Positions 7,711-13,007 of a stretch of DNA of 64,000 nt are shown here, in pieces. The notes under the pieces were generated by a model. That model searched no databases, was not told the origin of the DNA, and saw nothing but the letters and a program-made list of their open reading frames with translations. The translations under genes were made by a program, and so were the position numbers. Every line of letters starts with the position of its first letter. Positions within the stretch are counted from its first letter, which is position 1. The stretch lies in the IMG/VR virus record IMGVR_UViG_3300032224_000970, positions 1 to 64,000 of that record; one strand, given 5' to 3'. This DNA comes from a virus.

Positions 7711-7726
7711 GATCCCCATTTTTTTA
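7696..7726. terminator. bidirectional terminator between convergent operons
   Basis: AAATGGGGATC-GTAA-GATCCCCATTTTTTT. Confidence 0.85.
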
Positions 7727-10378
7727 TGCCTGAACACCATACCTACTATCGAGATATCGATTAACAGATGGTTCAGGATTGCGTATCGGCATGCGATACT
7801 CGAGACTTTGTGTAGATTTATTAATACTTGTTGGTGCGTTAACGATACTAGTAGTACCACCACCGCCACTAGAAGCCATTTCTCTTTGTGTATCTTGATT
7901 CTCTGCAGACTGTCTTCCGATCATTACAGTTTGTTGACCAGTTTCAACTTTCATTACACCACCAGATGCAGCAAATACACTTGCCTTCTGCCATGGGAAT
8001 GCGTCAACAGCTTTGATTGTTTCAGGTTTTATATTTGAGAATGCAGCGATACCATCAGAAATACTCTTGATACCAACACCTGCCTTTTCAAGACCAACTC
8101 CATATTGAGAAATTTGTTCCATCTGCTCAACTGGAGATTTTTGTCCACTAACTGCAGTTAAGAATCCACCAACCAAACTTCCAAGACCAGCTACTGCCTG
8201 AGCAGCACCGAATGCTGCCATACCTGCACCAACAGCAACAAGACCAGCACCTACCTTAACAAGATTATCACCATCGATCTTCGATAGTTTATCCATTGCT
8301 GCAGCGAATGCATCAAATGCAGGTGCAGCTATTTCCATTGCTGCAGCGAAAGGAATCAATGCTAAACTAATTGCAGAGATACCTACTGCACCAAGAAGTA
8401 GAAGTGGAGATAGAACACCAGCAAGAGCACCAACTCCAACCATTGCTCCTATAGCAGTAATTCCGCTAGATACTGATTCCCAATCTAAATCTTTCATAGA
8501 TTGGAAACCTTCGCCTACTGACATTAAACCCAAACCTAATGCTGCTAGTCCAGCACCTGCAAGAATCATCACTGGTGCTAATAAACCGATTGCACCAGCC
8601 ACAACTCCAAGAACACCTATCGTTACTGCTGCTTGTGCTATGGTTTCCCACTTTAAGTCAGCCATTGCTTGAAGACCAGTTCCTATTGACATCAGACCAA
8701 CACCAAGTGCAGTTAGTCCAACTGCAGCTAGTAACATTACTGGAGCCAATAAACCAATTCCAGCTGAAACTACACCTAATGCGCCAATAGTAACAGCAGC
8801 CTGAGCAATGGTTTCCCACTTTAAGTCAGCCATTGCTTGAAGACCAGTTCCTACTGAGATTAAACCTAAACCTAATGCTGCTAAACCTACGCCAGCCAGA
8901 ATCATTACTGGGGCTAGTAAACCTATTCCTGCAGCAACGACACCTAGTGCACCAATAGTAACAGCAGCCTGAGCAATGGTTTCCCATTTCAAGTCAGCCA
9001 TCGTTTCTAAACCAGTTCCTATTGACATCAGACCAACACCAAGTGCAGTTAGTCCAACTGCAGCCAGAATCATTACTGGTGCTAGTAAACCTATTCCTGC
9101 AGCAACGACACCTAGTGCACCAATACTAACTACTGCTTGAGCAATTGTTTCCCACTTAAGATCTGCCATTACATTCAGACCAGTGCCCACAGATATAAGT
9201 CCAACACCAAGAGCAGTTAGTCCTACGCCAGCAATTAGCATTAATGGAGCAACAGTACCTAATCCTGCAGCGATAACTCCAAGAGCACCAATAGCAACAG
9301 CTGCCTTAGCGATAGTGGCTAGATCTAAATCTGCCATAGTTTTTAAACCAAGACCAACAGATATAAGTCCAACACCTAATGCGGTAAGTCCTACACTTGC
9401 TATTAACATTAGTGGCGCAACTAATCCTAGACCAGCTGCTATAACACCAAGTGCTGCGATTGATACACCTGCTTTAGCGATTGTTTCCCAGTCTAGTTCT
9501 GCGAAATTCTTTAGCCCTGTGCTGGCTGAAAGTAAACCAACTCCAAGAGCAAGGATACCAACTGAGCCAAGTATCAACGCTGGTGCAACAGTGCCTAGTA
9601 GAGCAGCCACCGCACCTAGTGCTACTAGCGATACGATTGCTTTACCGATACTTTCCCATTCAACATCTGCGAATGTAGTTAATGCTTCAGCTGTTAACCA
9701 AAGAGCACCACCCATTACAAGTAGTGACGCTGCGCCAGCTAACATTGCTGGACCAGCACTACCAAGTGCAATCGCAGCAACAACTAAACCAGCAAGAACA
9801 ACACCACCCTTTAGTATCGCTTCCCATTCAATCTCACCAAACTTCTCTAATGCAACTGCAGTAATTAAAAGAGCAGCACCAAGTGCGAGTAGTGTTTTAT
9901 GCGCACCACTTTCTTCAATAAACTTGGTAGCAATAACTAAACCACCCATAACGATAAGACCTTTGGCTAAATCAGTCCAAGAAACATCTGCAAATTCTTG
10001 CATTGCTTTTGAAGTGATCCATAGTGCAGCAGCAAGTCCTAGTAAACCTTTAGCAGTATCGCCAAGTGCTTTAATACCACCTGACAATCCACTTAGTATT
10101 CCACCGCCACCACCTCCACTACTAGTAGCTTCGTTCGCTGGTCTAACAGCCTCAGGACGTTTACCACCACCTCCAGTATTATCTGCAATAATACCAAGAA
10201 GTCTGGTTTGTTCATCCATCCTCCTATTCATCTCTTCTTGATTTTCATCGGTAGTAGTACCAGACGCTGATGCTTCTTTCTCCATCAGTTCTCGAATTGT
10301 CTGAATGTGTTCTACCGATGCTTTTTGAAGATCCAAAAGTTTCTGGAAATTACTTGGAGATGCTGTTATGATTGCCAT
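7724..10378 (-). CDS. tape-measure-like (gp29-position) protein with hydrophobic 56-aa repeats
   Basis: Directly follows gp26/gp51; Ala/Gly/Leu helical repeats; C-terminal TSIVNAPT motif. Confidence 0.65.
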   Translation of the reverse strand: MAIITASPSNFQKLLDLQKASVEHIQTIRELMEKEASASGTTTDENQEEMNRRMDEQTRLLGIIADNTGGGGKRPEAVRPANEATSSGGGGGGILSGLSGGIKALGDTAKGLLGLAAALWITSKAMQEFADVSWTDLAKGLIVMGGLVIATKFIEESGAHKTLLALGAALLITAVALEKFGEIEWEAILKGGVVLAGLVVAAIALGSAGPAMLAGAASLLVMGGALWLTAEALTTFADVEWESIGKAIVSLVALGAVAALLGTVAPALILGSVGILALGVGLLSASTGLKNFAELDWETIAKAGVSIAALGVIAAGLGLVAPLMLIASVGLTALGVGLISVGLGLKTMADLDLATIAKAAVAIGALGVIAAGLGTVAPLMLIAGVGLTALGVGLISVGTGLNVMADLKWETIAQAVVSIGALGVVAAGIGLLAPVMILAAVGLTALGVGLMSIGTGLETMADLKWETIAQAAVTIGALGVVAAGIGLLAPVMILAGVGLAALGLGLISVGTGLQAMADLKWETIAQAAVTIGALGVVSAGIGLLAPVMLLAAVGLTALGVGLMSIGTGLQAMADLKWETIAQAAVTIGVLGVVAGAIGLLAPVMILAGAGLAALGLGLMSVGEGFQSMKDLDWESVSSGITAIGAMVGVGALAGVLSPLLLLGAVGISAISLALIPFAAAMEIAAPAFDAFAAAMDKLSKIDGDNLVKVGAGLVAVGAGMAAFGAAQAVAGLGSLVGGFLTAVSGQKSPVEQMEQISQYGVGLEKAGVGIKSISDGIAAFSNIKPETIKAVDAFPWQKASVFAASGGVMKVETGQQTVMIGRQSAENQDTQREMASSGGGGTTSIVNAPTSINKSTQSLEYRMPIRNPEPSVNRYLDSRYGVQA
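8480..9680 (-). repeat. 168-bp (56-aa) tandem repeat, about 7 copies
   Basis: TTTCCCACTTTAAGTCAGCCATTGCTTGAAGACC at about 8644 and 8812; protein unit ADLKWETIAQA..IGALGVV.. Confidence 0.9.
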
Positions 10379-10382
10379 GTCT

Positions 10383-10589
10383 TTATCTTAAATTCTTTGG
10401 TTGTTTAGCCTTTTGTGCTTCCATACGAGCTTTTTCTTCTTCTAAAAACTTAATCAACATTGTTACGTATACTTCTCTCTCGAACGGTATCATATTATCA
10501 AGTTCCGCAAGCGAGTACTTATGGTACTGCATCAATGAAAAATTCATCTTATAATGATTCATTAAGGTATCATGACAAAGGTTTATCAA
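10383..10589 (-). CDS. gp51: gp51-like baseplate/tail assembly catalyst; probably reached by -1 frameshift from gp26
   Basis: NFSLMQYHKYSLAELDNMIPFEREVYV motif; TTG start lies within a T8 run. Confidence 0.82.
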   Translation of the reverse strand: MINLCHDTLMNHYKMNFSLMQYHKYSLAELDNMIPFEREVYVTMLIKFLEEEKARMEAQKAKQPKNLR

Positions 10590-11308
10590 AAAAAACTTTG
10601 GAGACCCTCTAAAACTTTATGGTGGGCTTTACCGCAAACAGGACATTTATAGTCAACTTCTTTACGTAGCCTTGGCATAGTTTCAAAGAATTTCTGAACA
10701 CTCTTAAATTGCTCAGAAGTAAGGTTGTTTAAAAACTCAAGAATCTCTTCTTTTGATTGATCCTTCGCATGGAAAACTTTATCGCCATCATAAATGTATT
10801 CAACGCAGTTTGCAACTACTTTGAAAATCTCGTCAAGATTTTCTGTCTTGACATTTTGTAATTCTCTCATTGATTTGAAGTTTGGATATGTCATTACAAC
10901 ACCTACTTCATTGAACAATGGTATATTCTTTTGATGATCTGGATTAATATCAATTTCTAATTTACTGATATCAAAACTAATTCTAACTTTGGCTCTTTCA
11001 TTATCTGAGCCATGATCTTCATCGCAAGCAAAAACTAAATCAACAGTTTCACCTACAGACTTTGCACGTAGCTGAGTAAAGATATACTCAAGATCGAACA
11101 ATGCAAGATCTTCTACACGATAATCACCAGTTACGCATGCGCTGATAACAGATTTTAATGTATCAACCATCACCTGAGGATCTTCACTTTGCTGCGCCAT
11201 CAGCAGTGCTTTCTCTTCCTTAACTAAGAACTGTCTGTATTTGACTTCTTTCTTTAGCGAAGGGATTGTTAACGTATACGTTGGCGATGTATTAATTGGT
11301 AATGCCAT
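10586..11308 (-). CDS. gp26: baseplate hub assembly protein
   Basis: MALP..PTY, RQFLVKEEKALL, LRAKSVGE, FFETMP, CPVC, GLQSFF. Confidence 0.9.
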   Translation of the reverse strand: MALPINTSPTYTLTIPSLKKEVKYRQFLVKEEKALLMAQQSEDPQVMVDTLKSVISACVTGDYRVEDLALFDLEYIFTQLRAKSVGETVDLVFACDEDHGSDNERAKVRISFDISKLEIDINPDHQKNIPLFNEVGVVMTYPNFKSMRELQNVKTENLDEIFKVVANCVEYIYDGDKVFHAKDQSKEEILEFLNNLTSEQFKSVQKFFETMPRLRKEVDYKCPVCGKAHHKVLEGLQSFF

Positions 11309-11310
11309 AT

Positions 11311-11736
11311 TCATTCTCCTTTAGTCATATTCTGAATAAGTTTATTCAACTCACTTGTGCTACCTACAAAGATAGCATTATTCGTTACCTTAGCCCCACC
11401 TTCTTTCGCTGATGGTGCATCTAACTTTGCTTTTTGCTGGTGGATATCCATTAATTGTTGGTTAATGTCAGCCAGCTGTTTCATTAAATTACCCACGACC
11501 TCAAAGGCACGTGGGTGTTCAGATTGTTTTGCAACTTCAAGAGCTGCATTTAATGCTTCCTGTCCTTTCACCAATAACTCGTGTAGATTACCACGAGTTT
11601 TATCATAGTCATCTTCAATGCGTTGGACTGGGGTTTGAATAATCTCCCCAGTCTCATTCTCAATCAATTCATGTTCAGTAATCTTTACAATTTTAGGTGT
11701 ATCGAATACTGCAGATAATGTATCATCAATTTTCAT
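11311..11736 (-). CDS. gp16: terminase small subunit (cyanophage-type)
   Basis: DYDKTRGNLHELL.KG, SEHPRAFEV, NNAIFVGSTSEL. Confidence 0.85.
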   Translation of the reverse strand: MKIDDTLSAVFDTPKIVKITEHELIENETGEIIQTPVQRIEDDYDKTRGNLHELLVKGQEALNAALEVAKQSEHPRAFEVVGNLMKQLADINQQLMDIHQQKAKLDAPSAKEGGAKVTNNAIFVGSTSELNKLIQNMTKGE

Positions 11737-11737
11737 T

Positions 11738-12202
11738 TTAATCGTTTCTAGTATTTCTCATTGGTGGATCATCAGGTAACAAATCGTCACTTGGTGGTAA
11801 TGGACGTGCCATTGGTTTTGGTGTAGGACTATTTATTGCTGCTGGCGCACTAACACTGGGACTTGCGAATACTGGCGCAGGTACGCTAGGTGCTGCTGGC
11901 ATGCTTGGTGGTAAGGGTGTAACATTTGTTGCTGCTCCCGCAATTTTCTCTTGTGTACGACCAAACGCTGCAATACCTAAAACTGCACCCATTGCTAAGT
12001 GGAATAGACCAGCACCTTGCAGTGTTAGTGGATTCCATTGTGTAATTGGTGTATGAGTAACTGTTTGTAGTAATGACCATGCAACTGGAAATACTACCAT
12101 GTCCATCATACAGACAACCATGTACATCCAACCCATAGCTGGACGCCACTTCTTCTGCATCCAATCTTCATCTTTCTTTTCTGCTTTAACTTCATCAGCC
12201 AT
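11738..12202 (-). CDS. holin-like membrane protein (GTA 3TM-holin-like) with Pro-rich tail
   Basis: WRPAMGWMY, TM segments, LGIAAFGRTQEK; AAGGA SD before ATG at 12202. Confidence 0.6.
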   Translation of the reverse strand: MADEVKAEKKDEDWMQKKWRPAMGWMYMVVCMMDMVVFPVAWSLLQTVTHTPITQWNPLTLQGAGLFHLAMGAVLGIAAFGRTQEKIAGAATNVTPLPPSMPAAPSVPAPVFASPSVSAPAAINSPTPKPMARPLPPSDDLLPDDPPMRNTRND

Positions 12203-12218
12203 TTTATTATCCTTTTTA

Positions 12219-13007
12219 TTATGTGCTTTCGAAATCAACAAACCTGCCAAAACTTTGCGTAATTTCAGTACGTCCAGTTGTAGCAGAACCACCACCTATT
12301 TCAGAGAAGATATCATTGAACTTCTGCTGAATATTATAAAATCCAGTTCTATTTACATCAAAGTCTGTTCCAAACTCACCTGCATCTGCAAGTTGCCATC
12401 CTGATGGAAAATATCTTGTTGCTTCTGTCTCACCAACTACTGATGGACTAACACCTCTTGGTTCTGGAATATCTTTTTGAATTTTAATTGTTCCACTCCA
12501 AGATTTAATCATAAATGTAACTTGCATCTTCATTACATCTTTTTGATCATATCCCATTTGAATAGGAGATACTGTTTTAGGAAAGACTTCGTATAACTCT
12601 ACGACATATCTTTCTTTGTTCGCTACATCTTCTACTTTAATTTGCATCTGTTGGCAAACATATTGATCATAGTAGTTGAATGTTCTACGCTTACCTTGCT
12701 GAATACTTTTAATCCATGAGTCAAAGAATGCTTTAACTTCCATTGCCCCATCTACATAGAAAGACATGGTGATAGCGTCATAGTTAAACTCATAAGGTAT
12801 TTCACGCACCTCACCAAATGTTCTAATTGGCGTTGTGTTTACATTCAATCCTGGAAGACTTATCGAGTCGCAGAATAGTAAAATTTTTGGTAAGTCTAAT
12901 TTAAATGCAGTGCGGACAGCAGCTGGCGCATCAAGAACAACAGAATATCTGTTGCTTCTAGCCAATCCACTTGGTCCCATCTGACTGACGAATTTTGAAA
13001 TTTCCAT
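12219..13007 (-). CDS. gp54: baseplate tail-tube initiator
   Basis: GLARSNRY, FCDSISLPG, EVFPKTV; tube-protein fold motifs. Confidence 0.75.
   Translation of the reverse strand: MEISKFVSQMGPSGLARSNRYSVVLDAPAAVRTAFKLDLPKILLFCDSISLPGLNVNTTPIRTFGEVREIPYEFNYDAITMSFYVDGAMEVKAFFDSWIKSIQQGKRRTFNYYDQYVCQQMQIKVEDVANKERYVVELYEVFPKTVSPIQMGYDQKDVMKMQVTFMIKSWSGTIKIQKDIPEPRGVSPSVVGETEATRYFPSGWQLADAGEFGTDFDVNRTGFYNIQQKFNDIFSEIGGGSATTGRTEITQSFGRFVDFEST

Follow-up and report, generated by a model that had tools for sequence, protein, structure and literature searches.

A candidate −1 frameshift on a T-run joins gp26 and gp51 of a T4-related phage into a lambda G/GT-like chaperone pair

The single gp26-family gene of an uncultured T4-like phage very probably makes two proteins, a short and a long form, by a −1 slip on a run of T residues, as judged from the arrangement of the locus and its relatives. 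The gene is located on the minus strand of the stretch of DNA analyzed here, called the window (64,000 nucleotides, positions 1 to 64,000 of the IMG/VR record IMGVR_UViG_3300032224_000970). The best explanation is a programmed ribosomal −1 frameshift that yields a gp26–gp51 chaperone pair, and we consider this explanation likely. The lambda G/GT-like reading of the pair is supported. As the original prediction had proposed, the locus combines a −1 overlap lacking a start, a slippery heptamer, and a tape-measure neighbor. The N-domain has a modelled fold like that of tail assembly chaperones (TAC). We describe here the anatomy of the locus, its conservation, its homology to T4 gp26 and gp51, and the TAC-like fold.

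The gp26-family gene (10,586–11,314, minus strand) has 242 codons followed by TGA and is predicted to encode the short chaperone form (TAC-N). The 242-aa protein matches PF12322 (T4_baseplate) at 5.1e-63 with residues 11–242 on profile positions 2–218 of 219, and phrog_150 (“baseplate hub”) at 4e-68. An alternative start is Met3 (11,308), which is where the homologues begin. The −1 extension, i.e., the “gp51” mini-ORF (10,383–10,589, minus strand; 68 codons and TAA), would form the C-terminal part of the predicted long product (TAC-NC). It matches phrog_634 (“baseplate hub assembly catalyst,” gp51) at 1.4e-26. The extension also matches positions 237–278 of phrog_150, the gp26 family; therefore, some family members carry this segment in frame.

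The pair was predicted to lie directly upstream of a tape-measure-like gene. This holds, as the adjoining ORF (7724–10,378, minus strand; 884 aa with hydrophobic repeats) matches phrog_4372 (“tail length tape measure protein”) at 9e-39 in four stretches and begins at 10,378, which is 5 nt past the stop of the extension. Its product consists of a repeat of about 56 aa, each copy of which contains two long hydrophobic segments. On the other side, the neighbor of the gp26-family gene is the gene for the small terminase subunit (terS; 11,311–11,736, minus strand) and not a tail tube gene. The terS gene overlaps the gp26 start by ATGA and is an unusual neighbor for a tail chaperone gene. Farther upstream is a GTA_holin_3TM-like ORF (11,738–12,295, minus strand; PF11351, 3e-8), which overlaps the end of a tail-tube-like gene (12,219–13,007). 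The source virus record has 159,683 bp with terminal repeats and is rated complete; this complete genome contains exactly one PF12322 gene.

At the junction, the minus strand reads GAG GGT CTC CAA AGT TTT TTT TGA. The slippery heptamer T_TTT_TTT (10,595–10,589, minus strand) consists of the T of AGT and the two following Phe codons, and it stands in the X_XXY_YYZ phase of the gp26-family ORF. It is part of a run of 8 T (10,595–10,588). The 0-frame stop TGA (10,586–10,588, minus strand), which ends the ORF 11,314–10,586, adjoins the heptamer in a “shifty stop” arrangement. An SD-like GAGGG (10,605–10,609, minus strand) precedes the heptamer with a 9-nt spacer. It is a candidate upstream stimulator and codes for a conserved Glu-Gly as well. 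After the heptamer, the −1 frame continues as TTG ATA AAC CTT (LINLCHDTLMNHYK...) and stays open for 68 codons up to a TAA at 10,385–10,383. The predicted products have 242 and 310 aa if the first ATG is used, and 240 and 308 aa with Met3 as the start. All coordinates originally given for the heptamer, the GAGGG, the stop, and the −1 frame were exact on recheck, and the proposed products of about 240 and 308 aa match the lengths from Met3.

In the whole window, TTTTTTY is depleted about 3.4-fold (15 observed vs. 51 ± 8.5 expected from shuffles). This depletion suggests a general avoidance of slippery T-runs in this genome. TTTTTTY occurs twice in the window in the X_XXY_YYZ phase within an ORF of at least 80 codons, and the gp26 junction is the only in-phase occurrence in a long ORF that has a long −1 frame behind it. 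The combination of heptamer and −1 overlap at gp26/gp51 exceeds chance because TTTTTTY is depleted, the window has a single such site, and the arrangement is kept in all related junctions.

For comparison with relatives, we used 80 IMG/VR loci (gp26 40–68% identical), the cyanophages S-CAM3 and P-HM1, and Delftia phage PhiW-14. These loci gave 62 distinct junction sequences, which are mutually related, so that the counts do not represent independent events. The alignment proposed with the original prediction gave a uniform result. An in-phase T_TTT_TTY is found at a conserved C-terminal Phe-Phe in 62/62 junctions, and the gp51-like segment follows in the −1 frame in each of them, with a length of 60–68 codons wherever the locus is uncut. 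The 0-frame stop is directly behind the heptamer in 42 of the junctions and one codon later in the other 20. The codon ahead of Phe-Phe always ends with T (AGT 42, AAT 8, TCT 7, GAT 3, GGT 2). Five different codons that all end with T point to selection on the nucleotide despite the kinship of the sequences. The P-site Phe is encoded by TTT in all 62 junctions vs. 65% TTT elsewhere in the same genes. By these codon counts, the heptamer is under synonymous-site constraint.

If gp26 and gp51 were two independent genes, a “gp51” peptide of about 50–68 aa would be translated alone from the stop-overlapping TTG or from an internal ATG. GenBank records do annotate a separate small gp51, and TTG overlaps TGA in the window. 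In most close relatives, however, this TTG is TTA and the stop is TAA or TAG; hence, Leu is conserved and the start codon is not. P-HM1 has a GAGG before an ATG at codon 10, but an SD-like motif before any of the first three ATGs of the extension, the first one included, is absent in 60/62 junctions. In the window, none was found before any of the ATGs of the extension. The first ATG is at codon 15 in 34 and at codon 20 in 16 of the junctions (50/62), yet codons 1–14 are under constraint at the protein level. They read L/R, I/V, x, L, C/S/F, H, D/E/N, S/T, L, x, N, Y/F, Y, K, and the residues before the first Met, the conservation of which was an open point of the original prediction, are conserved as protein. 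The summed entropy for codons 2–14 is 10.9/8.5/16.2 at positions 1/2/3, i.e., it has coding periodicity, and the other two frames over the start of the extension contain stops in 62 and 61 of the 62 sequences. The starts chosen by gene callers are scattered and give lengths of 40 to 81 residues, as expected for an ORF that has no real start. Furthermore, T4 has the homologous segment solely at the C-terminal end of a gp26-like protein. The proposal that the TTG of “gp51” lacks a start signal of its own is thus borne out by the absence of a conserved start or SD across the 62 junctions, and the coding signature indicates that the extension is translated from the slip site onward. Phages of the KVP40-like group, PhiW-14, and Rhizobium phages have TAATG or TGATG at this position. 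Independent initiation is unlikely in the window phage on these sequence grounds, and it would be a possible extra route in the TAATG/TGATG lineages. As a general account of the pair, two separate genes are very unlikely.

An identical protein would result from transcriptional slippage, in which RNA polymerase adds one U on the T8 and a subset of mRNAs encodes the fusion in frame. The uninterrupted T8 in the window and in 38/62 junctions speaks for this mechanism, as does the lack of a conserved downstream RNA stimulator in the RNAalifold analysis. Bacterial RNA polymerase is known to slip efficiently mainly on runs of 9 or more. The window has T8, and an A/T run of about 9 nt or more is not conserved among the homologues. 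In the other 24/62 junctions, the run is limited to T6 and a C comes next; such a run is too short for RNA polymerase to slip on efficiently, yet the same phase and the extension are kept. In addition, a ribosomal event agrees with the strict X_XXY_YYZ phase, with the wobble base that is always T, and with the dnaX-like spacing of the SD-like element. We therefore consider transcriptional slippage unlikely. That a homopolymer sequencing error splits a single in-frame gene, or that the overlap is due to chance, hardly deserves credence. Homopolymer runs are indeed error-prone, and one in-frame fusion of 303 aa (P0005) exists. The same split, however, recurs in isolates and in many metagenomes, 62 distinct sequences in all, and T6C junctions, where no long homopolymer is present, are among them; the distance of the 0-frame stop from the heptamer is held at 0 or 1 codon; and split forms make up 111 clusters vs. 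one fused form. A ribosomal −1 slip is the most economical explanation because the phase, the wobble constraint, and the extension are kept in the 24 junctions with T6 then C.

The SD-like GAGGG had been pointed out for its dnaX-like spacing. It lies 9 nt from the heptamer, and few other sites in the gene match the anti-SD as well. The duplex of the 8-mer TTAGAGGG with the anti-SD has −6.3 kcal/mol, which is in the top 0.3% of the 8-mers of the window ORF. Across the relatives, anti-SD binding has a median of −7.0 kcal/mol with a sharp minimum at 7–9 nt from the heptamer, and the site is within the top 2% of the ORF in 46/62 relatives. Glu at this site is mostly encoded by GAG, vs. 29% GAG among the Glu codons elsewhere in these genes. 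The motif would fit a dnaX-like upstream stimulator, but conservation of the Glu-Gly dipeptide confounds this comparison. Conserved residues impose part of both signals, E-G in the case of the SD-like motif and F-F in the case of the T-run. On the downstream side, RNAalifold on 28 junctions gave 0 pairs, i.e., no conserved structure, and single-sequence folds were weak and inconsistent (z of −1.97 for the window alone). A stop that abuts a slippery heptamer, as it does in the window clade, favors slippage according to older “shifty stop” work.

The AlphaFold2 model of the 242-aa protein (pLDDT 85.9) was aligned exhaustively against 48,161 representative PDB chains. The top ranks for model residues 1–96 were 3fgx (Z 7.4, rmsd 4.3, 87 aligned), 2ob9, i.e., HK97 gp13 tail assembly chaperone (Z 7.1, rmsd 5.7, 85 aligned), and 3klu, i.e., YqbN (Z 6.7, rmsd 5.7, 86 aligned). 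Rank 4 was chain 5ir0 with Z 5.4, and unrelated chains followed below with Z of at most 4.2. The three top-ranked structures are phage tail assembly chaperones with a common structural core (PMC9603447). A TAC-like fold of the N-domain is supported by this model; the Z-scores are modest, and what counts is that the three solved TACs take the first three ranks. A Foldseek search of the model against the PDB gave no match at E ≤ 0.001 and listed 2ob9 weakly at rank 10 (E 0.67, probability 0.82). A sequence search of the PDB with the gp26-family protein gave nothing relevant.

The pair resembles gpG/gpGT of lambda. The −1 frameshift of tail assembly chaperone genes is reportedly conserved, as said to be described for lambda gpG/gpGT by Xu, Hendrix and Duda in 2004 and by Levin et al. 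in 1993. In this class, two products are made in a fixed ratio, both are absent from virions, and the N-domain binds the tape measure protein. Common to lambda and the window are overlapping ORFs, the second of which is in the −1 frame and lacks a start, a heptamer near the end of the first ORF, the position just upstream of the tape-measure gene, and the TAC-like fold of the N-domain. They differ in that their sequences are not detectably similar, U_UUU_UUY takes the place of G_GGA_AAG as the heptamer, and the first ORF of the window, with about 240 aa, has extra domains beyond the TAC core of about 95 residues. Moreover, terS takes the place of the tail tube gene upstream. A second comparison is E. 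coli dnaX (tau/gamma), which resembles the window in having a −1 slip at a heptamer of the homopolymeric type and, some 10 nt before it (9 nt in the window), an SD-like element inside the gene. However, dnaX has a strong downstream hairpin, whereas the window clade lacks a conserved one, and the shifted frame of dnaX ends at once, whereas that of the window adds a domain of 68 residues.

We propose the following mechanism, in which we infer the ribosomal nature of the slip, its efficiency, and the binding partners of the products. Most ribosomes would halt at UGA and release the short chaperone of 242 aa. A minority would slip back by one base on U_UUU_UUU, either by a tandem slip of two tRNA-Phe or by slippage in the P site with the stop codon already present in the A site. 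Translation would then go on with UUG-AUA-AAC and add 68 residues, which would give a long form of about 310 aa (about 35 kDa). The predicted junction is ...LQSFF-LINLCHD..., with the junction peptide VLEGLQSFFLINLCHDTLMNHYK. The likely stimulators are the SD-like GAGGG 9 nt upstream and the adjoining stop codon. By analogy with lambda gpG/gpGT, the shared N-domain would bind the tape-measure protein encoded by the adjoining gene, and the rare extension may recruit a further component of the tail or hub.

In T4, genes 26 and 51 are divergent neighbors, and gene 51 heads the 51-27-28-29 operon. PF12322 spans residues 1–206 of T4 gp26 (208 aa) and residues 1–201 of T4 gp51 (249 aa), and residues 207–248 of T4 gp51 align to the extension of the window (BLASTP E 9e-5; profile E 7.5e-5). 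With hhalign, the gp26 alignment against T4 gp51 gave a local CPxC match only, although PF12322 covers both proteins in full length. T4 gp51 thus has the architecture predicted for the frameshift product of the window, i.e., a full-length PF12322 domain and a tail, and T4 gp26 corresponds in architecture to the product without the shift. T4 has two divergent paralogous genes with neither a heptamer nor an extension after gene 26, whereas the window has one gene. Since the window genome contains a single PF12322 gene, the long form needs recoding. T4 gp26 and gp51 are hub assembly chaperones. T4 gp51 is required for assembly and absent from the virion (PMC3004832). The “gp51” of cyanophage and marine vibriophage is without the first ~200 residues of T4 gp51 (Sullivan et al. 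2010, PMC3037559).

Other lineages vary in this arrangement. The KVP40-like Vibrio phage D485 and PhiW-14 keep T_TTT_TTC and have an ATG overlapping the stop in addition. Rhizobium phage RHph_Y68 has T_TTT_TTG plus TGATG. The Vi1-like phage rabagast and Vibrio phage K469 have a homologous extension in the −1 frame and no canonical heptamer, and Acinetobacter phage KARL-1 has two genes like T4. In D485, PhiW-14, RHph_Y68, and K469, an ATG overlaps the gp26 stop as TAATG or TGATG, and judging from this overlap, coupled re-initiation could coexist with or replace the frameshift in these lineages. In Salmonella phage rabagast (L086:2328–2832), about 500 nt after the “baseplate hub” gene are unannotated and contain a homologue of the gp51-type extension (..MPWHLDLL..) as a −1 ORF; at the junction, GAG ATT TTC ATT TAA, a canonical X_XXY_YYZ heptamer is missing. 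P0005, encoded on a single contig of 1805 bp, is the only in-frame gp26–gp51 fusion found among 5.8 billion clusters. It has the junction ...SFCKFFLICLSHD..., which is odd (..GLASFCKFFLICLSHD..) and may be a natural fusion or a homopolymer error. A precomputed PF28602 assignment is attached to P0005 and to the short “gp51” ORFs P0006–P0116, so that a curated family for the gp51-type extension seems to exist now.

The extension is carried by 508 phage records. In the records examined, it is annotated as a separate small gp51 gene or unannotated, and no joined gp26–gp51 CDS was seen in them. This agrees with the original prediction that annotations of T4-like phages call two genes. In S-CAM1 (L090:1204–1389) and DSL-LC03 (L091:1204–1373), the extension is unannotated and lies in an apparent gap between gp26 and the large downstream gene. 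[quoted passage not shown] PMC12846349 attributes to this work the report of poly-T −1 slippery sequences in TAC-N genes of T4-like phages, and PMC10885494 presents it as describing that in some T4-like phages frameshifting is replaced by a short gene together with a long, fused one. In a 2016 review, T4 had been named as the exception (“except T4”) to the conservation of G-T frameshifting among phages with long tails (PMC5009743). Going by these accounts of Vladimirov et al. (2022), the gp26/gp51 frameshift is already published for T4 relatives, and the window phage is a new example and not a new mechanism.

We tentatively put forward a broader reading, which is plausible without being the probable one. 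Among T4-related phages at large (cyanophage, pelagiphage, KVP40-like, and PhiW-14-like groups), frameshifting rather than two genes would be the usual arrangement and probably the older one, and in the window clade it would be driven by the “shifty stop” and the SD-like element at dnaX spacing, with no downstream RNA structure. Part of this reading may already be contained in Vladimirov et al. (2022).

For the window phage, the finding corrects the annotation to one recoded chaperone gene with products of 242 and 310 aa, in place of a hub subunit and a free “catalyst” of 6–8 kDa. The same annotation issue is present in hundreds of deposited relatives, i.e., the records that carry the extension. 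The locus also supports the view of T4 as a derived case in which gene duplication replaced recoding; this idea has been published, and the value of the present example lies in confirmation and breadth.
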